Below are positions 8,964 through 54,656 of a DNA stretch of 64,000 bases, one piece after another. The stretch is from an uncultured Candidatus Peribacteria bacterium (lineage in GTDB: Bacteria > Patescibacteriota > Gracilibacteria > Peribacterales > Peribacteraceae). The notes under the pieces are model-generated. The model was given only the letters and a program-made list of their open reading frames with translations, ran no database searches and was not told where the DNA came from. Position 1 is the stretch's first letter, and each line of letters opens with the position of its first letter. The translations under genes and the position numbers were made by a program. The DNA lies in contig CAZSMX010000006.1 in NCBI GenBank assembly GCA_964608325.1, positions 1,426-65,425 on the forward strand, given 5' to 3'.

Positions 8964-9578
8964 ATGTCCGCCAAGACCACCAACACCGACCGTCAGAACA
9001 AGCGAGACCGCGGTCAGCGCGCTCCCTCCGAGTTCACGGAAACGACGCTCTCGTTGGACCGCGTCACCCGCGTGGTGAAGGGAGGTCGCCGCATGCGTTT
9101 CCGCGCCGTCGTGGTCGTCGGTGACCGCAAGGGCCGCGTGGGAATGGGAACGGGCAAGGCGAACGAAGTGCAGGTTGCCGTCCAGAAGGCCACGAAGGAC
9201 GCCAAGCGCTACATGATTCGCATCCCGCTCGTGAAGGGAACGATCCCGCACCAGGTCGACGTGAAGTTCAAGTCCGCCAAGCTCCGCATCATGCCCGCTT
9301 CCGAAGGAACGGGAATCATCGCCGGAGGCGCCCTGCGCGTCGTGTTGGACCATGCCGGCGTGAAGAACGTGCTGGCCAAGCGCTTCGGCACGGGAAACAA
9401 GCTCGTTAACGCACAGGCTACGTTCCGCGCCCTTAAGCTCCTGAAGCCTGCTCGCCAGAAGGATCTCGAAGTCGTCGAAGTGAACAAGGATGCTGTCCAA
9501 GTGAAAGAAGTCGGTTCCGACGAGATCAAGCACGGCGGAATCGTTGAGAAGAAGAAAGAGAAGAAGGACGCGAAGTAA
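8964..9578 (+). CDS. rpsE: 30S ribosomal protein S5 with C-terminal extension
   Basis: [34 protein letters not shown] motif. Confidence 0.97.
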
Positions 9579-9583
9579 GCCTC

Positions 9584-12577
9584 TTAGGACGGATTGCGGG
9601 AAGTAAGATCCCGATAGTCGTAATTTGCCATTCCCCGAAGGGCTTGGATCAGTTCGGGCTTTTTCCTGTATCCGCTCCATAAGACCCAAATCGGGTCGCT
9701 TTTGTCCGGCCATGTCGCCGGGTCCTCCGTCATCTCGGAAAAGGCTTTTTCGGCCCTCGCTCCCTCGTACCATTCATGCGGTTTCAGTTCCGTTCTCTCA
9801 ACGTCCGGCCTGTTTTTTGCATAGAATTCCCAGAGGGCGAATGCGTCATCCGATACGCGCTTGCGGTCCGATGTCAGCCACAGGCCGCGTGTTGTGGCCA
9901 GCTCCATGGCGATGTCGTACATCACCGGTCCGATGCCGCCCGTGGCGCTGGAAGATTCCACGACCATCACTTGGGAATTCGGGATCCGCTGGCAATCGAT
10001 CATTCCTTTTACTTCTCCGTCGAAAGCAATCGTGATGCGCTGATCGCTATCGGTTACTTTTATGTTGGTATTCTTCAAGGAAAGCAATTTTTCCAACGTC
10101 GTGCGCTTTTTGGGCGCTACTTCGACCGCGGAGTCACCGGATTGCGCTTCTTTCTGATGTACCGCCGTTTCCTTGTTCGTCTCGGCATCGCCATCGGGGC
10201 TTGCCTCGGGTACATCAGGAAGCGCAGCCGCCTTCGCGAACGCCGCTTCGAATTCCGCCTTCGTCTTCTTCAGTCCGTCGAGTTCCTCGAAGATCTGCTT
10301 CAGCTCGGTGTCCCCGACCTTGTTCTTTTTCAGGAGCGCGGCGGGATCGGCGGAAGACAGGAGGTCTTCCACGTGGATGCCTCCGCTCAATTTGTGCACG
10401 TTCATCCGTCCCAGGTTCGCCTTGTTCACCAGCTGGGACAGGCCATGGAGTTCCGCATCCGGCGCGCTGCGCAGCTTCCTCAGAAGGCCGCTCATTCCCT
10501 GCTGGCCGAATTCCGCGAAACTGAGTCCGAAGAACATCGCGTTGCTCTGCAGGTTCTCGATGAATTCGCCGCCCTTGATGGTGGTGTCGAGCGTGGTTCC
10601 GACCAAGAGGTCCGCCGTGCCTTCGCCCGTCGCGCCGATGAGGCGCGTAGCTAGGCTCGACGCGTCGTCGAGGGAACCCAAGAGCTTCGCGCCGCCGGCC
10701 TTGCCCGCGATGCTGAAGATCTTCGAGAGTCCGCCCGCCTGTTGTAGCAGTCCCGCGCGCGATAGTTGGAACGCCGCGCGTCCCGCCGAGATGTAGCGTG
10801 CCGCGCCCATCGTCGCGGTGTTCACCGCGAAGTCTTTTCCGTATGTCTTGAATGCGTCTTCCAAATTGTCGAATCCCTGCTGGTTGATCACCGCGTTGAC
10901 GCCCGTCATTGCCGCGCCTCCCGCAAGGGCTGCCGCGACGACGCCGAGTCCTCCGGTCGCGATACCGACGGCGATACCCGCGGCGATCATGGCCGCGATC
11001 TTGGCGCCGATCGCCACGTAGCTCCACGTCTTGTCGGACACGTCGTATCCGTATCCCTGGATGTCCGCCAGCAGTTGCCATGCTTCCACCTGCATCGGGT
11101 TGAGTCCCGGCTCGCCGATGGTGGCGTTGATTTCATTCAGAGTCGCGGCGCCCCCGATGGTGCCGTCCAGGAAGGTTTCGAATTTCACATACGCGCTTTC
11201 CAGGAAGGGGATGAAATCCTTGTTGATTTCCCCCTGGATGGTTTCCTGATTGATTCCCGAGCCGCTCATCTGTGCCTCGATGTTGCGCAGGAGGGCGTAC
11301 TGCGCGGAAATCCCGGTGACGTCCGTCGGATTGCCGTTCAGTTGCGCTTCTATCTGCACGATCTGGTCGGTGCGTTGTTCGGGCGGCAGTGACGCGAACT
11401 TCGAGAGGATGGCCCCCTTTTTTTCGGAGACGTAGTTTTTCAGTGGGTTTTTCTCACTCAGGGTTTTTTCGACGTAGCGCATCGCCAGTTCCTCGAATCC
11501 CATGGCGTCCTTCGCCATCGCCTCCGCGAAGTCGATATCGGTGAGGGCGCTGTCGATGGGGGAGCCGCGGTCCGTGAAGAGTTTCGCCAGTTCCATCGCG
11601 TGGCGGCAGAAATCGGCGGCCCTGGCCGGGTCGTTTCCGATGTTGCCCTTTTCTTCCGCCAGTTTTTTCTGGATGGCGGCTTTGCACGTATTGATGAGTT
11701 TTCCGTACGTTTCCTTCAGGCCGCTGCTCTGCCAGTCGTTCCCGTCGATGGAAGACAGCGTCTGCTGCACCCAATCGATCGCTTCTTCCATGGTCATGTT
11801 CGGGATCATTTCGGCAGCCTGCTGCGTCGCCAGGGTCGCGTCGCGCAGTTCCACGTTCTCCTCATCCTCGTTCACGCTCGCCACCAGTTCGGTATAGCGC
11901 TTCGCGCGTTGCAAGTAGAGGGCGCGGAGGTGTTCGTATTCCTTGCCGCCCTTCGGGTCTGCGGACGCCAGCGCCTTCGACAGCTCGCTCAGGTTCCTGC
12001 GGATCGATTGCGCGATGCTTTGCAGAAGGTTTTTTTCCAACTGAGCCTCATTGCTTCCGTCTGCCAGCCATTCGTCCTTGTCCTTCATTTCCTCCAGCAC
12101 GTGCTCCAGGAAGGGGACGTATCCCAAGCTGTCGTGGATGTACGCAACGTGGTATTCCACGTCAGGCGTGATCGCGCTGTCCGCGGCTACTTTTTCCTTG
12201 GCCAGGTAATCGGCAGCCACGCCCGCGAGCCGTTCCGCTTGGAGATCTTTCTTCGCCTCGGCCTTCAACCCCAAGTCGTCCGCGAGCTTATTCATCTTCT
12301 CCCGGTTCGTTTTCACATCCGCGTCCACTCCCGCGGTCGGGAAGCGTTCGCCGTCCAGCCATTTGCCGACCGGTTCCGAATTATTCCTCCACTGCCATGT
12401 GTTTCCGTTCTTGCGGAACTCCACGTTCGTGATCTCCGTTCCGTTGAATCCCGCGCCGAGTCGCAATTCTTTTTTCCACACGCCGTCCTTTTGGACGAGG
12501 CCGGCTTGCTCCAGTTTTTGGGCGTCCGCGTCCGTATTGTTTTGGTCGGGCCGTTCCTGGAATGATTCGGGTGACAT
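9584..12577 (-). CDS. giant hypothetical protein (997 aa): helical N-terminal region, Ala/Gly-rich hydrophobic hairpin, GNAT-like C-terminal domain
   Basis: Uninterrupted 2994-nt ORF whose antisense ORFs are low-complexity noise. Residues ~518-565 (YVAIGAKIAAMIAAGIAVGIATGGLGVVAAALAGGAAMTGV) form a glycine-zipper-like hydrophobic segment. Residues ~868-905 (QVMVVESSSATGGIGPVMYDIAMELATTRGLWLTSD) resemble GNAT motif A. No signal peptide was seen. Confidence 0.8.
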   Translation of the reverse strand: MSPESFQERPDQNNTDADAQKLEQAGLVQKDGVWKKELRLGAGFNGTEITNVEFRKNGNTWQWRNNSEPVGKWLDGERFPTAGVDADVKTNREKMNKLADDLGLKAEAKKDLQAERLAGVAADYLAKEKVAADSAITPDVEYHVAYIHDSLGYVPFLEHVLEEMKDKDEWLADGSNEAQLEKNLLQSIAQSIRRNLSELSKALASADPKGGKEYEHLRALYLQRAKRYTELVASVNEDEENVELRDATLATQQAAEMIPNMTMEEAIDWVQQTLSSIDGNDWQSSGLKETYGKLINTCKAAIQKKLAEEKGNIGNDPARAADFCRHAMELAKLFTDRGSPIDSALTDIDFAEAMAKDAMGFEELAMRYVEKTLSEKNPLKNYVSEKKGAILSKFASLPPEQRTDQIVQIEAQLNGNPTDVTGISAQYALLRNIEAQMSGSGINQETIQGEINKDFIPFLESAYVKFETFLDGTIGGAATLNEINATIGEPGLNPMQVEAWQLLADIQGYGYDVSDKTWSYVAIGAKIAAMIAAGIAVGIATGGLGVVAAALAGGAAMTGVNAVINQQGFDNLEDAFKTYGKDFAVNTATMGAARYISAGRAAFQLSRAGLLQQAGGLSKIFSIAGKAGGAKLLGSLDDASSLATRLIGATGEGTADLLVGTTLDTTIKGGEFIENLQSNAMFFGLSFAEFGQQGMSGLLRKLRSAPDAELHGLSQLVNKANLGRMNVHKLSGGIHVEDLLSSADPAALLKKNKVGDTELKQIFEELDGLKKTKAEFEAAFAKAAALPDVPEASPDGDAETNKETAVHQKEAQSGDSAVEVAPKKRTTLEKLLSLKNTNIKVTDSDQRITIAFDGEVKGMIDCQRIPNSQVMVVESSSATGGIGPVMYDIAMELATTRGLWLTSDRKRVSDDAFALWEFYAKNRPDVERTELKPHEWYEGARAEKAFSEMTEDPATWPDKSDPIWVLWSGYRKKPELIQALRGMANYDYRDLTSRNPS

Positions 12578-12580
12578 GGG

Positions 12581-13216
12581 TTAATTCGAAGCGGTATCGC
12601 CTTCGTTTTCTTTCTCCTCGCGCCTGCTCGCATTCCTCGCGACGATGTCGGAAATGCTCGGGATCGGTCTGTCCGATGCCTTCCAATCCACGTCGATGTC
12701 CGGCAGCGCGGGAAGTACGTCGATAGCTTCCTCTTCTTCTTTTTGCACGGCGTCCAGACGGTATATGGAATTTTTCGTCCGCACGTACGCGTTGCCATAC
12801 TGGTCCATGAGACACTGCGTCACCGGGCTCGTTGCTCCCGCTCCTTCATTCAGCGAAAGCGATTCGCCCAGGGCCACGTCCTCGTCCATTTCCCCCCAAT
12901 CAGACATCTTGGCGCGGACGGTGTTCGTCTGCGGATCGACCTTCGACAGTCCGACGATGCTGCCTTTTTGAAAAGGGAATTCCGCAGGATCCACTTCCAC
13001 CAATGTCGGCGACTCCCGCCCGTCGGCCGTCGGGTCGCCTTCCCTGATGACCTTCATCATCTTTTTCCGATCGTCTCCGAGCATCCTGGCCATTCGTTTG
13101 ATCATCTTCAGGAAACGGCGGCGACTGTCGTCTTCGTTACGTTCCTCCGGTTGCCGCGCTTCAGGCTGCACGCCTTCGTTTTCATGTTCTTCCCGCTGTT
13201 GTTTGTTTTCTGCCAT
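12581..13216 (-). CDS. hypothetical protein with highly charged N- and C-terminal tails (211 aa from ATG 13216)
   Basis: ORF 12581..13261. The internal ATG at 13216 is preferred because it avoids overlap with the upstream gene. Only 3 nt separate it from the 997-aa gene. Confidence 0.6.
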   Translation of the reverse strand: MAENKQQREEHENEGVQPEARQPEERNEDDSRRRFLKMIKRMARMLGDDRKKMMKVIREGDPTADGRESPTLVEVDPAEFPFQKGSIVGLSKVDPQTNTVRAKMSDWGEMDEDVALGESLSLNEGAGATSPVTQCLMDQYGNAYVRTKNSIYRLDAVQKEEEEAIDVLPALPDIDVDWKASDRPIPSISDIVARNASRREEKENEGDTASN

Positions 13217-13224
13217 AGGATATT

Positions 13225-14340
13225 TTAGGGTAAAAGGACGCCGCCGAAGTGCTGGACCCACAGGCCCCCGAACACTCCGATGCCAATGTCCGAATAATCA
13301 GGATTGAGAATCGCTTCCTTGTGGGAAGGGGATTTCATCCACGCCGTCACCACTTCCTCCGCCGTCTTCTGTCCGCGCGCGATATTCTCGCCGAACGTGT
13401 ATCCCTTGATGCATCCGCAATCGCGGGAGAACGAGCGGTCGTAGTAACCCGTCGCCCCGACGCGGTCCTTCAGCGTCTTGCCGTCCGGGCTCACATGCCC
13501 GAAGAATCCCTGTTCCGCCATGTCGATGGCGTACTGCTGGGCGGAGCCCTCCAAGTAGACGTTGTAGGTGAGGGGTTTGATTCCTTCCTTTCTGCGGATG
13601 TCATTCACGCGGTCGATGATTTGCGTGCGTATTTCCGGAAGCGTCAGGAGAATCGACGGCGCTTCCTCTGCTGCCGGGGCCGCGTGCGCAGATCCGGGCG
13701 GGGGAGTCGTGTCTAGGATCGCGTTCGTCTTGCGCGTGGAAATCACCGAATAAATCGTCAGTCCGCCTTTCGCTTCCTCCTTCGCCAGTTGCTTTTCCAT
13801 CTGGCCTCCCGCTACTCCCTGCGGTACCGATGCCGAGATGAAGCGTTCCATGGCGAATGCTGCTTCCGTTTCCAGCATACGGAGCGTTGGCTGGAGGGAG
13901 TGCGGATTCTTGAGGTCGAAGAGGCGGTACTTCTGCGCGATGCCCGCGTATTTCTTGTACCAGGCGTCATCCGGGATATCCGTGTACAGATACGGGTATT
14001 CCTTCGCGATGCCGAAGGTGAAGGACAGCATTTTCAGGAATTCGGCGCGTGAAACGGAACCCATGGGGCGGAGGTTTCCGTGTTCATCGGGCGACAGGAT
14101 GCCGAACTGCGCCGCCGCAAGCATGGCGCTTTCGTACCAGCTTCCTTTCGGGATATCCCCGAATTGCCCTTTGTTTTCAATGACGGGCAGCGTCGTGCTG
14201 CGTGCCGACAGCAACACGGAAACGAGTTCCGCGCGCGTCACGTAGTTCGTCGCTTCGATATCCGCACTCACCGCCAACGAACGCCCGGCGCCGAGCGCGA
14301 CGATCATCAAGCCTATGAGGGCGAGACGGATACGGGTCAT
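13225..14340 (-). CDS. secreted SLH-repeat protein with C-terminal CAP/SCP (YkwD-like) domain
   Basis: N-terminal signal-like MTRIRLALIGLMIVALGAG. Two SLH-like repeats (FGDIPKGSWYESAMLAAAQFGIL...SRAEFLKML and YTDIPDDAWYKKYAGIAQKY). CAP motifs: FFGHVSPDG, GENIARG, WMKSPSHKEAILNP. Confidence 0.75.
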   Translation of the reverse strand: MTRIRLALIGLMIVALGAGRSLAVSADIEATNYVTRAELVSVLLSARSTTLPVIENKGQFGDIPKGSWYESAMLAAAQFGILSPDEHGNLRPMGSVSRAEFLKMLSFTFGIAKEYPYLYTDIPDDAWYKKYAGIAQKYRLFDLKNPHSLQPTLRMLETEAAFAMERFISASVPQGVAGGQMEKQLAKEEAKGGLTIYSVISTRKTNAILDTTPPPGSAHAAPAAEEAPSILLTLPEIRTQIIDRVNDIRRKEGIKPLTYNVYLEGSAQQYAIDMAEQGFFGHVSPDGKTLKDRVGATGYYDRSFSRDCGCIKGYTFGENIARGQKTAEEVVTAWMKSPSHKEAILNPDYSDIGIGVFGGLWVQHFGGVLLP

Positions 14341-14390: not shown

Positions 14391-14548
14391 CCTTTTTACG
14401 CCATTTTAGGCCAGGCTCTAGGGAAATACCTCATACTGTATTAAGGCATTGGTCAAGGTCTTTCCCATTCCCGTAAAAACACCAGCAATTTGCCCTTTAC
14501 GGGGTGGGAATCACCGTTTACTATGGCGCCCTCGAACACCCTTTTCCC

Positions 14549-14992
14549 ATGCTTCACAACCTCCGACCAGCATCCGGCTCCCGTCCTTCCAGAAAGCGCA
14601 TTGCCCGCGGTAACAGCGGCGCAGGCGGTACGACCGCAGGACGCGGAACCAAAGGACAGCATTCCCGCACGGGAAAGGGTCGCAAGCACGGCTTTGAAGG
14701 AGGACAGGTTCCGCTGCTCCGCCGCCAGCCGAAGCTCGGCGGTTTCAAGCGCGATCGCCGCAAGGAATACGAAGTCGTGAACCTTTGGTCGTTGGAAGAG
14801 GTCCTTCCGGCCGGAACGTACACGATCGAAGATCTGCGCCAGAAGCGCCTGATCCGCAAGGGAAAGCTCGTGAAGATCCTCGCAGACGGCGAGATCTCCA
14901 AGAAGTTCGTCCTCGAAGCGCATGCCGCTTCGAAGAAGGCCAAGCAGATGCTTGAAAAGGCGGGCGGAACGCTCACCATTCTCCGCGACTAA
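14549..14992 (+). CDS. rplO: 50S ribosomal protein L15
   Basis: MLHNLRPASGSRPSRKRIARGNSGAGGTTAGRGTKGQ matches the L15 N-terminus. The ORF's upstream extension to 14504 is rejected. Confidence 0.95.
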   Translation: MLHNLRPASGSRPSRKRIARGNSGAGGTTAGRGTKGQHSRTGKGRKHGFEGGQVPLLRRQPKLGGFKRDRRKEYEVVNLWSLEEVLPAGTYTIEDLRQKRLIRKGKLVKILADGEISKKFVLEAHAASKKAKQMLEKAGGTLTILRD

Positions 14993-48980: not shown

Positions 48981-50012
48981 ATGTCTTCCCTTCCCGATTC
49001 CGTATTTGAAAAAGCCCTGGCGGCCAAAGCATCCGATGTCCACATCGTCGCCGGAGCTCCTTTATTGTTCCGCATCGACGGCGTGCTCACGCCGCAGACG
49101 CAGACCGATGTGAGTCCGAAGGAAGTGGAAGCATTCGTGAAGGACCTCCTGGGTACCGCGGCTTTTGAGCGTTTCCAGAAGGAGAAGGAGATCGACATGG
49201 CTCATGGATTGCCTAACGGCGTCCGCCTGCGCGTGAACTGCCACTTCGAACGCGGCAACATGGCCGTCGCCGCGCGCATCATTCCCGTGGAAATCCCCAA
49301 CCTCGCGGATGTCGATCTCACGGACATCGCGACGCAGGTCGTGGGACTTCGCGAAGGACTCATCCTGTTCACCGGTCCCACGGGATCCGGAAAGAGCACG
49401 TCGCTCGCAGCACTGTTGCAGAGCATCAATGAATCGCGCGCCGAGAATATCATCACTTTGGAAGACCCGATCGAGTTCCTCTTCCCGAAGGGCAAGGGCG
49501 TCATTCGCCAGCGCCAGTACATGGAAGATTTCCTCTCGTTCCCCGAGGCGATGAAGCGCATCCTGCGCCAGGACCCGAATATCATCATGGTCGGCGAAAT
49601 GCGCGATCCCGAAACGATCGCCGCTGCCCTCACGCTTGCTGAGACGGGTCACCTTGTCCTTGCGACGCTCCATACGCCGAACGTCATGCAGACCATCGAC
49701 CGCATCGTGGATGTCTTCCCGCCTCACCAGCAGCCGCAGGTGCGTTCACAGCTCGCGCTATCGCTCAAAACCATCGTCGCACAGAAACTTCTGCCGAAGG
49801 AAGGCGGGGGACGCGTGGCGCTTCGCGAAGTGCTCATCAATACGCCTGCGGCGCAGAACATCATCCGCGATAACCGCGTACAGGAGCTTGCGTCGGTCTT
49901 GCAGACGGGCAAGGAGCTTGGCATGCGTTCCTTCGAGGCAGATCTGAAGCGCCTGAAGAAGGACGGGCTCATCAGCGAGGAGACGCTGGAGCTTATGATG
50001 GGAAACCTGTAA
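48981..50012 (+). CDS. pilT: type IV pilus retraction ATPase PilT
   Basis: Walker A GPTGSGKST, Asp/His boxes and TLHT motif. 343 aa. Confidence 0.92.
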   Translation: MSSLPDSVFEKALAAKASDVHIVAGAPLLFRIDGVLTPQTQTDVSPKEVEAFVKDLLGTAAFERFQKEKEIDMAHGLPNGVRLRVNCHFERGNMAVAARIIPVEIPNLADVDLTDIATQVVGLREGLILFTGPTGSGKSTSLAALLQSINESRAENIITLEDPIEFLFPKGKGVIRQRQYMEDFLSFPEAMKRILRQDPNIIMVGEMRDPETIAAALTLAETGHLVLATLHTPNVMQTIDRIVDVFPPHQQPQVRSQLALSLKTIVAQKLLPKEGGGRVALREVLINTPAAQNIIRDNRVQELASVLQTGKELGMRSFEADLKRLKKDGLISEETLELMMGNL

Positions 50013-50021
50013 GACCATTCT

Positions 50022-50050
50022 GTTCCATAGGGGTATGGAACGGTAATTTT
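50022..50050 (+). terminator. hairpin after pilT
   Basis: 8-bp stem gttccata/tatggaac with gggg loop, followed by ggtaatttt. Confidence 0.5.
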
Positions 50051-50139
50051 GGCTTTCGGAAGCGTCTTTTCGGAAGCCGCATTTCACGCATGGAACGTGC
50101 GTTTGTTTCGCAAAACCCTCTCCCGTAAAGTGAGGAGCT

Positions 50140-51711
50140 ATGAACAGCCTCCCTTCCAGCATCGAGACGTATTTCCAAGAGGCGGGCTTCTCCGGCACGG
50201 AGATCGCCATCATCAAGAAGCTTGTGGAAGGGGATGCCATGACCTTGCGCGACCTCGCGTTCAAGACGGGCAAGAGCACGGGAGTGTTGGACCAGGCGAT
50301 GAAGAAGCTCCTGAAAAAGAAGATCGTCGTGCGTGAGATGATCAACGGCACGCCGAAGTACGTCCTGCATTCGTTGGAATCCGTGTCGAAGTGGCTGCAG
50401 GATGATATGAAGCAGAAGAAGAACGTTCTGGAATTGCGTCATCAAAACTTCGAATCATTCATCTCTTCCATCACGTCTGGCAAGAGGCGTCCCGAGATGC
50501 AGTTCTTCCAGGGTGCGGAAGGCCTGAAGAAGGCCTACACGCTGCTGCTGGAAAAGGGGAATGACTTCGTACAGTACGGCCCTGTTCTGTATACGGAAAC
50601 CGAGGATCCTTTGCGGGAATTCAATGTCCAGTATTTCCGCGAGCGCCGGAAAAGGAACATCTTCCTCCGGGTCATCGCGCACAACACGCCGCTTGGGCGT
50701 CGATTCCAGAACAGGGATCCGTTCGAATACAGGAAGACCGTACTCGTGAACGAGAACCTGTATCCGTTCGCCTTTGAGAAGATTGTCGTCGGAAATACGG
50801 TGGCCTGCTTCCAGCATGAAACGCAGGAGGCGTGCTTTATCGAATATAAGGAACTTGCTGAACGAGAGCGTCAGTTCTTCGAGAGGCTCTGGAATATGAA
50901 GTTGCAGCATCCTGACGAGGGGGTGGAACCGGTAGTGGATCTCAATCCATTGCCGATCGTTTCCGTGTCGATGACGGTGCCGACGAAAACGAAGGTACTT
51001 TCGCAAGTGAGGGAGTTCTTCTTGAGTCCAAAGAGTATTTTTGCATTCGTTATTTGTGGCATTCTCTCGGCTGGCGTGACGTATTTTTTGTACCAACATA
51101 GCTTGTCATTAAATCTTGAGAGAATTCAGGAAAAAGCAAAGGTGGTCGCTGCAACTGGTGCACTCCAATTTAGTATTAACGATTTAAATCAATTACATAC
51201 TCTTGAAGATACGAAAAAAAGTGAGTATTCAAAAATTGTTTCATTATTAAATGAAATTCGTAACCAGGATAAAGATATAAAATATGCTTACATTATGAGG
51301 TTAACTGAGGAGGAAGGTGTTTGGGAATTTATTGCAGACGCAGATTCTCTTGATCCTTCTGCAAAAAAAGATATTACCGGCGATGGAAAAATTGATGATA
51401 AAGATTTGTTATCTCCACCTGGTCAAAAATATGACACCAAAGCCTTTCCTCCAATTGAAGATAATAAGCAGGCATTAATACATCCAATAATCCTAGGTCC
51501 ATTTGTTGATCATTGGGGAAGTCTTATTTCTGGCTGGGCACCAATAAGAGATGAAAATGGAAAAGGGGTAGCAATATTAGGAATAGATATTTTTAGTGAA
51601 ACCGCTGTAAAATTATCAAAACAAGCTTTCGCCTCAATTTCATACTTTCTAGGATTTTTCTTGGTTTTCATACTGTTTAGGCTAATTGCTTTCAATAAAT
51701 TCTTGTTATAA
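50140..51711 (+). CDS. membrane-tethered TrmB-like winged-helix regulator fused to a periplasmic Cache/PDC-like sensor domain
   Basis: N-terminus EIAIIKKLVEGDAMTLRDLAFKTGKSTGVLDQAMKKLLKKKIV (wHTH). Two TM segments flank a domain paralogous to the sensor of the kinase at 52684. GC content drops inside the gene. Confidence 0.7.
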   Translation: MNSLPSSIETYFQEAGFSGTEIAIIKKLVEGDAMTLRDLAFKTGKSTGVLDQAMKKLLKKKIVVREMINGTPKYVLHSLESVSKWLQDDMKQKKNVLELRHQNFESFISSITSGKRRPEMQFFQGAEGLKKAYTLLLEKGNDFVQYGPVLYTETEDPLREFNVQYFRERRKRNIFLRVIAHNTPLGRRFQNRDPFEYRKTVLVNENLYPFAFEKIVVGNTVACFQHETQEACFIEYKELAERERQFFERLWNMKLQHPDEGVEPVVDLNPLPIVSVSMTVPTKTKVLSQVREFFLSPKSIFAFVICGILSAGVTYFLYQHSLSLNLERIQEKAKVVAATGALQFSINDLNQLHTLEDTKKSEYSKIVSLLNEIRNQDKDIKYAYIMRLTEEEGVWEFIADADSLDPSAKKDITGDGKIDDKDLLSPPGQKYDTKAFPPIEDNKQALIHPIILGPFVDHWGSLISGWAPIRDENGKGVAILGIDIFSETAVKLSKQAFASISYFLGFFLVFILFRLIAFNKFLL

Positions 51712-51797
51712 ACCACATAAGATACTTAATAAACTTATAGACAAATGCTAAATAAAATAAGCATGTAGTTTTGAATTTGTAGTGATATTATTTATAT

Positions 51798-52613
51798 ATG
51801 AGCAAATCTAAAACTGAAGGTAACTATTCCCCAAAAGATTGGGATCAGATTGAGGACATAAATGAAGTTAAAGTAATTACTGCAAATCTGGAGAAGTTAA
51901 ATAAAGTGCATGTTTATGATCATGCTGAACTCTATGATATTGCTTATCCTGGTTATGAAGGAGACATGAGTTTTTATTTAAAGAAAGGTAGGGTTGGGAA
52001 GGTGCTCTATTTAGGCATAGGATCCGGAAGGATATTTTCTGAGCTTGTAAAGGTTAATCAAAATATCATAGGAATTGATAACTCAGTTGAAATGTTGAAC
52101 CTTCTTTATAAAAAATTTCCCCATATCAACAAAAATCAAGCCATCTTAAAAGATGCGCTGGTTGACGAATTTCCAACAGAAGAATTTGATTTAGTGTTAG
52201 CGCCATACTCTTTTATGCAATGTTTCGAAGTAGAGCAGTTAGAAATTTTACTTTCAAATGTTAAAAAATGGCTAAAGCCCAACGGTAAATTTTATACTGA
52301 TACTTTCTCAACATTTTTAATTCCTTTTAGAAAGAAAGGTCTTGAGACAATTAGAGAAAAAATAGGAGATATCGATTTCCAAATTTTTATTAAATACAAT
52401 CACATTCTACAAAAAATGAGAGAATGGGTTCTAATTAAGAAGGGCGAAAAAGAGTATTTAATTGAAATGAACTTAAATTATTACTTCCCTCATGAAATCT
52501 TTCCTATCGCAAAAAAAGCGCATTTAAAAAATATAAAAGTTTTTGGCGATTATTCAGAGGATATTTTTGATCCAACTTTGCATAACGTAATTAGCTACGA
52601 AATGCAAAAATAA
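51798..52613 (+). CDS. class I SAM-dependent methyltransferase
   Basis: Motif I VLYLGIGSGRI, followed by IGIDNS. Low-GC. Confidence 0.75.
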   Translation: MSKSKTEGNYSPKDWDQIEDINEVKVITANLEKLNKVHVYDHAELYDIAYPGYEGDMSFYLKKGRVGKVLYLGIGSGRIFSELVKVNQNIIGIDNSVEMLNLLYKKFPHINKNQAILKDALVDEFPTEEFDLVLAPYSFMQCFEVEQLEILLSNVKKWLKPNGKFYTDTFSTFLIPFRKKGLETIREKIGDIDFQIFIKYNHILQKMREWVLIKKGEKEYLIEMNLNYYFPHEIFPIAKKAHLKNIKVFGDYSEDIFDPTLHNVISYEMQK

Positions 52614-52683
52614 GGTCAATTATGATGCTTATTTGCTGTTTTACTAGCTTTAAAAGTAAAGGACTTTATGATATAATGTATTG

Positions 52684-54135
52684 ATGTCTAGAAATACAAA
52701 TAGCCAGGCTGTGACCGATCAAAAAGCAGCAGGGAAATTCCATTCCTTGCGGATATATTTATTGCTATTTGTGTTTTTAACTTTGACGGTAATAACTACC
52801 CTTGTTCTTTACAATAAAACTCAAGAATTCTTTAGGTGGAGTTTAAATGAAAGAATGCTGGCTTTAGCATCTATTGCTTCAACAGAATTTGAAGCTGAAG
52901 ATCTCAATAAAATCACTGGTCCTGAAAGTATCCATTTAAATGTTTATAAAGAAACAGTAATTAAATTGCAGAGAATTCGAAATAAGACTGATAAATTGAA
53001 ATACATTTACATTTTAAGAGAAACAAACAATCCGAATGAATTAGAGTTCGTTGCCGATGCAGATTCTCTAGAGCCTGATAAACCGATTGATCTTAATGAA
53101 GATGGGATCGTAGATGAGGAAGATGCACTTACATTTCCAGGAGATATATACGACATTTCTGAATTTCCAGAGTTTAAAGAGGCAGCATTTGATAAATCTT
53201 TTGTAGATCCTGAGCTTACCTCTGATCAATGGGGAACTTTTCTTTCTGGGACTTCGCCGATAATTGGTTTCAGTAAAGATGGAAAAAGATATGTTATTGG
53301 TTTAGATCTTGATGTTTCGGAATATTTGAATTTAACAAATCTTGCTTTGGTGCCATTCGCATTGTTCGTTGTATTTCTTTTGTTAATACTCACAACTTTG
53401 ACGCTGATTCTTAAAAGATTGTGGAAAACGCAAGTAAAATTATTGGCAGAACTAGATATTCAAAAAGATGAGCTATTAAGCATTGTGAGTCACCAGCTAG
53501 CAACTCCGGTTTCATCTATTAAATGGTATTTGGAAATGATGAAGGATGGAGATCTGGGTAAATTAAATGATGAACAAAAAGCACATGTTACTTCTATGCA
53601 AGAAGTAGCTGTGAATCTTTCAGATCTTGTAAGCATGATCCTCGATGTGTCCCGTATTCAGTTGGGGCGTATGCATATCGAGAAGCAAGACCTCGATCTC
53701 AGTGCTTTCTTTAAGGAGATTCTTGAAATTATCGAGCCGAAAGCTCTCGAAAAGAAAGTGAATTTTATTAAAAAAATTCCCACATCTTTCCCTGCTGCAA
53801 AACTTGATAAGAGGTATACACATATGACAATTGAGAACCTGCTGAGTAATGCTGTGAAATACACACCGGAGAATGGGAATGTAGATTTCACAGTAACAAT
53901 TACTGGCAATATATTGCGTTGCGTTGTGAAAGATACTGGAGTTGGTATCCCGAAGGCTGATCAAGAAAAGATTTTTGGAAAATTGTTCCGTGCCAGTAAC
54001 GTACGCAATAGCGTAGATGGAAATGGATTTGGATTATATGTTGCAAAAGGCGCTGTAGAAGCTCAAGGGGGAAAAATTTGGTTTGAAAGTACAGAAGGAA
54101 AAGGAACTACTTTCTTTATTGAATTACCTTTGTAA
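52684..54135 (+). CDS. sensor histidine kinase (TM - Cache/PDC-like sensor - TM - HisKA - HATPase_c)
   Basis: H-box SIVSHQLATP, N-box LLSNAVKYT, G1 DTGVGI and G2 GNGFGL. Confidence 0.9.
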   Translation: MSRNTNSQAVTDQKAAGKFHSLRIYLLLFVFLTLTVITTLVLYNKTQEFFRWSLNERMLALASIASTEFEAEDLNKITGPESIHLNVYKETVIKLQRIRNKTDKLKYIYILRETNNPNELEFVADADSLEPDKPIDLNEDGIVDEEDALTFPGDIYDISEFPEFKEAAFDKSFVDPELTSDQWGTFLSGTSPIIGFSKDGKRYVIGLDLDVSEYLNLTNLALVPFALFVVFLLLILTTLTLILKRLWKTQVKLLAELDIQKDELLSIVSHQLATPVSSIKWYLEMMKDGDLGKLNDEQKAHVTSMQEVAVNLSDLVSMILDVSRIQLGRMHIEKQDLDLSAFFKEILEIIEPKALEKKVNFIKKIPTSFPAAKLDKRYTHMTIENLLSNAVKYTPENGNVDFTVTITGNILRCVVKDTGVGIPKADQEKIFGKLFRASNVRNSVDGNGFGLYVAKGAVEAQGGKIWFESTEGKGTTFFIELPL

Positions 54136-54139
54136 AAAA

Positions 54140-54161
54140 CCCACCAAGTTGCCTTGGTGGG
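54140..54161. terminator. shared hairpin between the kinase (+) and DMT (-) genes
   Basis: 9-bp stem cccaccaag/cttggtggg with ttgc loop. An A-run on the plus side gives the T-tail for the minus-strand gene. Confidence 0.7.
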
Positions 54162-54185
54162 TAAATATCGATGAGAGTGATGAGA

Positions 54186-54656
54186 TTATTTTGCAGTACC
54201 TATAAGATACAAAGCACCTCCTCCTAAGAACCAAGCTACAACGATCTGTAGTGATGGAAATTTGTGCTCAAAGATTGCGGTAAAAAGAGCTGCGGCGACC
54301 GGCATTAATGAGTAGGCCATCGTAAGCGTTAAAGTTCCTACATTTTGATGAAGTGCCTGAAAATGTGAGCTGGCTGCAATGAAGGATGCAACAATCATCA
54401 AGAATATAAAACTAGATTGTTTTAAGTCTGGGGTAACAATACTAGTCTTATAAAAAAACAACGTAGTAAGAGAAAAAATTGCCATCCCCACCGCATAACA
54501 TGCAGTGATGAATTTAGGGGGGAGACTGGTTAATTTTAAATCCGTTATTGTGATTTCCAATGCATAGAAGAGCATTGCGATCACACACATGAACATACCA
54601 CTTTTCATATAAGTACTCCTATACTCTCTTGAAACGATATTTGAAAGACCTATCAA
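54186..54656 (-). CDS. small EamA/DMT-like membrane protein (about 5 TM)
   Basis: 156-aa all-hydrophobic ORF. Low-GC. Confidence 0.6.
   Translation of the reverse strand: MIGLSNIVSREYRSTYMKSGMFMCVIAMLFYALEITITDLKLTSLPPKFITACYAVGMAIFSLTTLFFYKTSIVTPDLKQSSFIFLMIVASFIAASSHFQALHQNVGTLTLTMAYSLMPVAAALFTAIFEHKFPSLQIVVAWFLGGGALYLIGTAK

Follow-up and report, generated by a model that had tools for sequence, protein, structure and literature searches.

A Peribacteria-specific protein family with a hydrophobic hairpin and an exchangeable, possibly GNAT-like C-terminal domain

In a stretch of 64,000 nucleotides (nt) from an uncultured Candidatus Peribacteria bacterium (GenBank assembly GCA_964608325.1, contig CAZSMX010000006.1, positions 1,426 to 65,425; hereafter the window), an open reading frame (ORF) on the minus strand interrupts a ribosomal-protein operon and encodes a protein of 997 amino acids (aa) that, taken whole, matches nothing significantly in Pfam, PHROGs, NCBIfam, PADLOC or the PDB sequences. 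What kind of protein is encoded at this site, and what might it do? An initial annotation, made from the letters of the DNA alone, had described a modular protein with a hydrophobic, membrane-type centre and a separate C-terminal domain, and both elements of that description are borne out by observation, the first as a hairpin and the second as a head that is swapped between genomes. We report here that the C-terminal cassette of this protein has been replaced wholesale between closely related genomes. We favour, at a probability of about 45%, the reading that this is a modular membrane protein, specific to Peribacteria, whose role is to carry enzyme heads that can be exchanged; the hairpin and an adjoining glycine-rich module would insert in a membrane and put across it a head that would perform acyl transfer. 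Coordinates of all features are collected in Table 1.

The ORF is confirmed as a real gene. Searches for homologues and their neighbourhoods, which the initial annotation had proposed, were productive: 12 relatives were found among 5.8 billion proteins, with housekeeping genes as neighbours at their loci, and those that are named come from Candidatus Peregrinibacteria or Peribacteraceae. A scan of one genome per GTDB species found single copies of the family in five species, every one of them Peribacteria, and its core was absent from the 2.9 million viral contigs of IMG/VR. The family alignment showed that the N-terminus, MSPESFQERPDQ, is kept in four homologues (P0002-P0005), and because of this conservation we take the ATG start to be correct. 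Read directly, the same residues are polar and acidic, in keeping with the earlier statement that there is no signal peptide.

The alignment also located the part that the family members have in common, residues ~118-790 of the window protein, and past residue ~790 no fewer than five tail classes, none related to another, can be told apart (P0001/P0002; P0003-5; P0006/8; P0007/10; P0012/13). The clearest evidence of exchange came from DNA comparison of the window with a near-identical locus, L009, in which the flanks are 89-94% identical and the core is 81% identical, and there is no DNA similarity from nt ~10206 to the stop codon; comparison with the L003 locus gave the same result. Because similarity to so close a relative ends at nt ~10206, the window tail is a swapped cassette.

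The cassettes found in other family members are diverse. Tails of P0006 and P0008 have a calpain-like cysteine protease signature (GNCYLIAAF ... HAYSI), and residues 1109-1327 of P0006 match Pfam Peptidase_C2 at E 3.4e-5, with 23.5 bits against a cutoff of 23.8. A phosphothreonine lyase assignment for the P0012/P0013 tails, made from motifs by eye, found no Pfam support and was set aside. We also observed an adaptor of ~95 aa (LPDTPEG...AH...Y..EL..K..IL..aGFT..Q...L...GVCG) ahead of the variable domain in P0003-P0007, P0010 and P0013; it is usually followed by a proline-rich spacer and has no family assignment, and the same adaptor precedes a GNAT-like domain in the unrelated protein P0017 (residues 383-490).

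A second site displays replacement of the entire gene. Two genomes have flanks there that are 84-88% identical, with rplJ-rplL on one side and dtd-relA on the other. One of them (L007, 8001-11321) encodes a full family member, P0007, of 1,106 aa, and the other (L001, 8001-8633) encodes only P0014, in which the window's tail domain stands alone as a protein of 210 aa. There is no trace of the core in L001 and no DNA similarity between the P0007 and P0014 inserts. Since P0014 stands in place of the carrier gene, the head can exist without this carrier. The observation that the window gene abuts rpsE and that P0014 abuts rplJ/rplL, substrates of RimJ and RimL, raised the idea of a ribosomal-protein acetyltransferase, which we rejected because the same sites hold unrelated tails and because the head is common in phage tape-measure proteins.

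We then asked what the head is. The initial annotation was correct in recognizing a compact C-terminal domain, whose start homology places at residue ~823 rather than 835. Residues 823-997 are 46-51% identical to two free-standing proteins, P0014 and P0015, and an exhaustive HMMER search of 1.84 billion representative proteins returned 1,649 clusters (50% identity) at E <= 1e-3, of which 395 were at E <= 1e-10. This sizable family is uncatalogued: the tail had no match in Pfam, NCBIfam, PHROG or the PDB sequences, and cluster look-ups gave no informative names. Its members occur in three settings. The first consists of metagenome proteins of ~200 aa, some of them on contigs classed as viral (up to 273 kb) or in phage-like neighbourhoods; none is named, none has a Pfam or PHROG match, and a tblastn comparison of the head and a small family member with 50,697 GenBank phage records found no match. 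One ~200-aa member (L021, 4481-5107) was seen on a 273-kb IMG/VR contig classed as viral, and the family therefore occurs in very large viral genomes too. The second setting is represented by four large proteins that we tested (1,570-4,774 aa), whose N-terminal part matches PF10145 of tape-measure proteins (E 1e-19 to 1e-25) and in which the tail domain is embedded further downstream. The third is cellular, and includes the large chromosomal proteins P0017 (672 aa), P0019 (2,644 aa) and P0021. P0019 (residues 723-772; L014) and P0021 (821-870) each have one Gly/Ala hairpin of ~50 residues with a TGG(L/G) turn, as in the window protein. As separate observations, P0019 ends in a Ser/Thr protein kinase domain, and two or three tandem partial copies of the domain's central part, the strand-loop-helix-strand-helix core, are present in P0022, P0029, P0042, P0066, P0083, P0090-P0093, P0098 and P0100-P0102.

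A motif A of GNAT acetyltransferases had been proposed for this domain. One part of the proposal stands, as the strand, G-x-G loop and helix in question form the invariant core of the family; membership in the GNAT superfamily is not established, and a GNAT-like fold is the best-supported reading, one that models and alignments render probable though well short of certain. The AlphaFold model of the tail (mean predicted local distance difference test score, pLDDT, 78; predicted template modelling score 0.75; built from four sequences only) opens with four consecutive strands (837-878), after which helix and strand alternate: helix 883-896, short strand 900-903, helix 910-922 and strand 926-930. 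The GNAT core runs in the order beta1-alpha1-alpha2-beta2-beta3-beta4-alpha3-beta5-alpha4-beta6 (PMC4964394), and the modelled order resembles its central portion, beta2-beta3-beta4-alpha3-beta5-alpha4-beta6. When the model was compared with the PDB by Foldseek, nothing was found at E <= 1e-3; all matches at probability >= 0.3 were GNATs (KKT23, OrfE, nourseothricin acetyltransferase, YycN, NAGS, RimI and PanZ), the best at E 0.018 with a TM-score of about 0.33, and antizyme and RNase-H-like folds appeared low in the list. In BFVD, a set of viral models, uncharacterised Caudovirales proteins ranked first (probability 1.0) and proteins labelled acetyltransferase or NAT_SF came next.

The loop that holds the G-x-G stands ahead of the helix, at the place where the pyrophosphate of coenzyme A (CoA) is bound in GNATs. 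In GNATs this loop is described as Gln/Arg-x-x-Gly-x-Gly/Ala just ahead of alpha3; the window protein reads A878-T-G-G-I-G883 and the family consensus A-T-K-G-Y/W/F-G, so that the first position is not Gln/Arg. Atypical loops are on record for proven GNATs, the AAC(6') enzymes (L-G-K-G-L-G and W-S-K-G-I-G; PMC4964394), and the consensus A-T-K-G-Y-G resembles them. Across an alignment of 38 diverse members ten positions are invariant (G881, G883, E892, S909, A912, W916, Y919, R923, D925 and K972) and nine are nearly so, including P884, Y887, D888, D904 and R905. The invariant polar residues E892, S909, Y919, R923, D925 and K972, together with the G-x-G loop, suggest catalysis.

Sequence profiles point weakly in the same direction. 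A profile search of the PDB had a single match, motif A of the 4zm6 GNAT domain at E 0.49; a lectin match from a narrower search with the cassette alignment was judged spurious. As a comparator we used seven annotated GNATs of E. coli K-12 (RimI, RimJ, RimL, SpeG, MnaT, YhhY and PanZ), with which hhalign aligned our tail profile, A5, in the beta2-beta3-beta4-loop-alpha3 register across 54 columns, at a score of 19.0, an E of 0.031 and a probability of 1.6%. Control profiles scored 11.3 +/- 2.4 when columns were shuffled, 10.8 +/- 2.0 when blocks were shuffled and 11.8-12.4 when reversed, and 19.0 was reached by 0/150 column shuffles and 1/150 block shuffles. Alignment with the single RimI sequence gave the correct register and was not significant. 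The predicted tail resembles the GNAT superfamily in its order of strands, helix, strand, helix and strand and in an invariant G-x-G that would fall on the CoA pyrophosphate loop, and differs from it in having no curated-profile match, no Gln/Arg at the first loop residue, no alpha1-alpha2 arm in the model, and a signature of its own (SS.A.KG.GP.LYD..E ... DR..VS..A..W.YY..R.DV).

If the head is exchangeable, what carries it? Residues 517-565 are the sole strongly hydrophobic stretch of the protein (Kyte-Doolittle, 19-residue maximum 2.12), with 45.5% Ala+Gly and 5.5% charged residues, and the Ala/Gly stretch of ~45 residues that had been placed at 518-565, nucleotide coordinates included, was accurately described. 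This hairpin is the best-conserved part of the family, with pairwise identities of 70-97% as against 39-84% in the rest of the core, and for this reason is not a chance low-complexity run. Seven of its glycines are invariant (G524, G534, G538, G543, G545, G553 and G554). Invariant columns per 100 number 37 in the hairpin (511-570), 27 in the glycine-rich module (571-720), 14-17 in the helical domain (118-510) and 3 at the end of the core (721-790). Other details of the first description fared less well. Repeated small-xxx-small spacing is not distinctive (14 pairs, as compared with 11.5 +/- 1.8 in shuffles, 13% of which reach 14), and with that spacing not above composition and no family or PDB match, we do not retain the likeness to colicins and glycine-zipper toxins. 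Segments 590-665, described as amphipathic and Gly/Ala-rich, are indeed rich in Gly and Ala but only weakly amphipathic (helical hydrophobic moment <= 0.39). The module that surrounds them is marked by the motifs NQQGFD, TMGAARY..AGR, GGxF..N...N..FxGL and LHG.

Toward the N-terminus, the full-length AlphaFold model is confident for two domains, a small one of beta structure at 28-75 and an all-helical one at 86-510. Residues 1-515, earlier called helix-like, are thus helical over ~86-510 (pLDDT about 80), the beta domain having been overlooked. Foldseek with the full-length model returned generic helical repeats only, and domain 118-510 had no specific structural or sequence relative. The clade-specific leader (1-117) is duplicated in P0003/P0004 and missing from distant members.

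In the reading that we favour, the hairpin and the glycine-rich module would enter a membrane, and the C-terminal head would be placed on, or passed to, its far side, be this the cell surface or a partner or host cell, by analogy with tape-measure proteins that carry embedded enzymes into the infected cell. There the head, with its GNAT-like fold, would probably transfer an acyl group from a CoA thioester, a candidate target being an amino group of the cell envelope, and the small acidic protein encoded next door may assist the conserved part, in an accessory role or as its chaperone. The carrier-and-head idea was already part of the initial annotation; it gains from the exchange of the head between near-identical loci and from the occurrence of the head in tape-measure proteins and other large proteins with a hairpin, and pore formation, delivery and an epibiotic role are things that we infer. 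The exported, wall-anchored CAP+SLH protein encoded in the same block (Table 1) and the proline-rich spacers of relatives fit action at or beyond the envelope. In published Peribacteria genomes, strain variation is concentrated in large exported proteins, and a symbiotic lifestyle has been inferred (PMC4736985); these observations fit the favoured reading and prove nothing about the 997-aa gene.

A number of points weigh against this reading. A signal peptide is absent, nothing connects the protein to any known machinery of secretion or injection, and a two-helix hairpin alone would bring the C-terminus back to the cytoplasm. AlphaFold performs poorly over residues 510-708 (pLDDT 30-40), and its model of them reveals neither a channel nor a topology. 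Most other members have the ~95-aa adaptor and proline-rich spacer ahead of the head, and the window protein has neither; the genes around it are housekeeping genes, and at the second site, which is syntenic, the free-standing head P0014 stands in for the entire carrier gene. As to chemistry, there is no Pfam or NCBIfam acetyltransferase match for the window protein at E <= 1 or for 10 small members at E <= 0.1, the alpha1-alpha2 arm is missing from the tail model, with none between the first strands, and the GNAT evidence is sub-threshold (Foldseek TM-scores 0.3-0.46; hhalign probability 1.6%).

These last points leave room for a tail that is not an acyltransferase at all, a possibility that is independent of the other alternatives discussed below and that we regard as rather unlikely. 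Ornithine decarboxylase antizyme is an example of a non-catalytic GNAT-like scaffold, and the tail could be another such scaffold or some other alpha/beta fold with a chemistry of its own. Consistent with this, all GNAT similarity is sub-threshold, Ala takes the place of Gln/Arg at the first loop position, the model rests on four sequences and lacks the alpha1-alpha2 arm, and antizyme and RNase-H-like folds are found, if low, in the Foldseek list. Three independent sequence comparisons, however, set the invariant G-x-G on the GNAT P-loop in the same register, atypical loops of proven GNATs resemble A-T-K-G-Y-G (PMC4964394), and an active site is suggested by the many polar residues among the ten invariant and nine nearly invariant positions.

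The main rival concerns topology. The hairpin may simply anchor a resident inner-membrane protein whose two large domains both remain in the cytoplasm, the C-terminal enzyme acting in cis on a lipid, a cell-wall precursor or a protein, and exchange of tails would then be metabolic or regulatory tinkering rather than conflict. This is the simplest prediction for a two-helix hairpin without a signal peptide, and the highly acidic N-domain of 516 residues likewise favours an in/in topology. Housekeeping neighbours at all loci and the lack of an immunity gene agree with it, as does P0014, which has no export signal and whose neighbours are conserved housekeeping genes, dtd and relA included. We nevertheless consider a resident protein somewhat unlikely: wholesale replacement of the tail between flanks that are ~90% identical, like the whole-gene replacement at the rplJL/dtd locus, is what genes of conflict or host interaction typically show; the tails include a calpain-like protease and long proline-rich spacers; the head is otherwise housed in phage tape-measure proteins, and these leave their producer; and the operon partner is an exported wall protein.

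If the gene belongs to conflict, an interbacterial polymorphic toxin comes to mind, in which the N-terminal part would serve trafficking, the cassette would kill non-kin and a cognate immunity protein would protect the producer. A conserved N-terminal part with a variable C-terminal part is, as Zhang et al. 2012 reportedly put it, the defining theme of such systems. Like CdiA, Rhs, LXG and MafB, the window family combines these parts across a sharp recombination junction at which unrelated C-terminal domains are exchanged, and has a stand-alone cassette-like copy in P0014. In contrast to those systems, no immunity gene is linked to the cassette. Neither the window nor L009 has a gene behind the cassette, and in the window, as had been stated earlier, nothing immunity-like is present downstream, the next gene on that side being rpsE, which is on the opposite strand and ends at 9578. 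Annotation of the neighbourhood disclosed no immunity-like gene, phage gene or secretion gene near the 997-aa gene, and P0014, flanked by conserved housekeeping genes, likewise lacks a candidate immunity partner. The cassette also belongs to no known toxin family, the carrier is a module of integral-membrane type limited to one class of candidate phyla radiation (CPR) bacteria, and the 997-aa protein has no signal peptide and no trafficking domain or marker (type V, VI or VII secretion, PAAR or LXG) that Pfam, NCBIfam or PADLOC detected.

The sole small neighbour is the acidic partner gene, whose stop lies 3 nt ahead of the start of the 997-aa gene and whose product has no family or PDB match. 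We considered it as an immunity gene for the cassette and rejected it. Homologues (176-211 aa across the window, L009 and L028) are found upstream of P0004 (L009, 5576-6199) and downstream of P0002 (L028, 5264-5794, 53% identity), and the gene is absent in L003; it thus changes sides and accompanies two different tail classes, GNAT-like and type-B. Because it is found with both, it is not a cassette-specific immunity gene, and the partner protein more closely resembles an accessory of the conserved part. At the P0005 locus, we noted in the partner gene's place after the big gene (L003, 11874-12818) a 314-aa gene with a PP2C-phosphatase-like motif, VAVVDGMGG, recognized by eye. In sum, the 997-aa protein works like a polymorphic or modular effector and fails two of the defining features, an immunity gene and a known trafficking route; we hold a true polymorphic toxin to be very improbable. 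The toxin-like effector head of the initial annotation is doubtful on like grounds, with no immunity-like gene after the cassette and a free-standing copy among housekeeping genes, and toxin-antitoxin GNATs (TacT/AtaT/KacT) offer no closer parallel, as there was no acetyltransferase model match and no antitoxin-like neighbour of the window gene or of P0014.

Could the gene instead be what is left of a prophage, encoding a tape-measure-like protein that has degenerated within the chromosome? Tape-measure proteins (PF10145, PhageMin_Tail) are similarly long and helical, with hydrophobic Gly-rich segments and an embedded enzyme-like domain, and many of them, of 1,500-4,800 aa, embed the same domain family as the window tail. 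They have, however, no sequence similarity to the Peribacteria core: PF10145 does not match the 997-aa protein, and the core profile reached at best E 0.23 against tape-measure proteins that carry the head. The 997-aa gene lies in a ribosomal-protein operon, without phage genes or tail-gene context nearby, it is intact and conserved at chromosomal sites in five species, and viral contigs lack the core, as noted above. This alternative is close to refuted. Of the outcomes that the initial annotation had named as refuting its proposal, a confident match of the tail to a non-GNAT fold and a tape-measure protein within a recognizable prophage, neither was encountered.

A further comparison is with effectors and translocators that have their own transmembrane segments. 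These include prePAAR effectors of type VI secretion with their Eag chaperones, the type III translocators IpaB/YopB with small acidic chaperones, chlamydial Inc proteins and mycobacterial CpnT. Like the 997-aa protein, they have an internal hydrophobic hairpin, no signal peptide and a large soluble domain on either side, and a small acidic protein next door recalls its partner; unlike a true relative, they have no detected homology to it. The secretion machines that serve such proteins are not known in Peribacteria, where reports are confined to type II secretion and type IV pili (PMC4736985). One may go beyond the carrier reading and suppose that the hairpin and glycine-rich module constitute a new translocation device of CPR bacteria, independent of secretion systems, that enters the membrane of a partner cell and delivers heads into that cell, an extension that we view as clearly unlikely. 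Within it, the device would draw on a cargo pool in common with phage tape-measure proteins, and the GNAT-like head would be a new class of injected acyltransferase effector, common to phages and episymbionts.

The components themselves are new: a carrier specific to Peribacteria, and a large head family, in common with phages, whose clusters (at least 1,649 at 50% identity) are missing from Pfam, PHROGs and NCBIfam. The interaction of CPR/Patescibacteria with partner cells is poorly understood and candidate effectors are few, and this family is a concrete candidate. Should an acyltransferase enter cells with the tape measure, it would represent a new early-infection activity, testable in tractable systems.

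The locus is itself unusual. The 997-aa gene is the last of three minus-strand genes (9584-14340) between rpsE and rplO-secY-adk-map-infA, and this opposite-strand block breaks the ribosomal-protein operon; the same insertion is seen in L003, L009 and L028. In most bacteria rpmD (L30) sits at that operon position. No L30 gene is present at the block position between rpsE and rplO, and the absence of L30 is a reported trait of CPR bacteria. The first gene of the block encodes the CAP (PF00188) and SLH (PF00395) protein, with a clear N-terminal signal peptide, and a CAP+SLH gene likewise precedes the family member in L003, L009 and L028.

Table 1. Features of the window, with nucleotide positions numbered from its first letter
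Feature	Position	Strand	Description
rpsE	8964-9578	plus	ribosomal protein S5; convergent with the 997-aa gene; one block boundary
997-aa gene (with stop)	9584-12577	minus	ATG start; member of a 13-protein Peribacteria family
Residues 823-997	9587-10111	minus	C-terminal GNAT-like domain (putative); large uncatalogued family
Residues 878-884	9926-9946	minus	loop ATGGIGP from fourth strand to helix; aligns with GNAT "P-loop"
Residues 791-822	10112-10207	minus	acidic low-complexity linker; start of exchangeable cassette
Residues 721-790	10208-10417	minus	last helices of core, weakly conserved; end in EFEAAFxKA motif
Residues 566-720	10418-10882	minus	conserved Gly-rich polar/hydrophobic module
Residues 517-565	10883-11029	minus	Gly/Ala hydrophobic hairpin; two helices, ATGGLG turn
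Residues 118-510	11048-12226	minus	conserved all-helical domain; AlphaFold pLDDT about 80
Residues 1-117	12227-12577	minus	clade-specific leader; small beta domain 28-75, WQWRNNSEP motif
Partner gene	12581-13216	minus	211 aa from MAENK start; acidic
CAP (PF00188) + SLH (PF00395) gene	13225-14340	minus	first gene of block; exported, cell-wall-associated
rplO	14504-14992	plus	ribosomal protein L15; followed by secY, adk, map, infA; other block boundary
ORF in low-GC island	50140-51711		unknown, 523 aa
Methyltransferase gene in low-GC island	51798-52613
Histidine kinase gene in low-GC island	52681-54135

Elsewhere in the window we observed an island of low GC content at ~50000-54200 (0.34-0.43, as compared with about 0.59 elsewhere), which contains the last three genes of Table 1 and was probably acquired horizontally.

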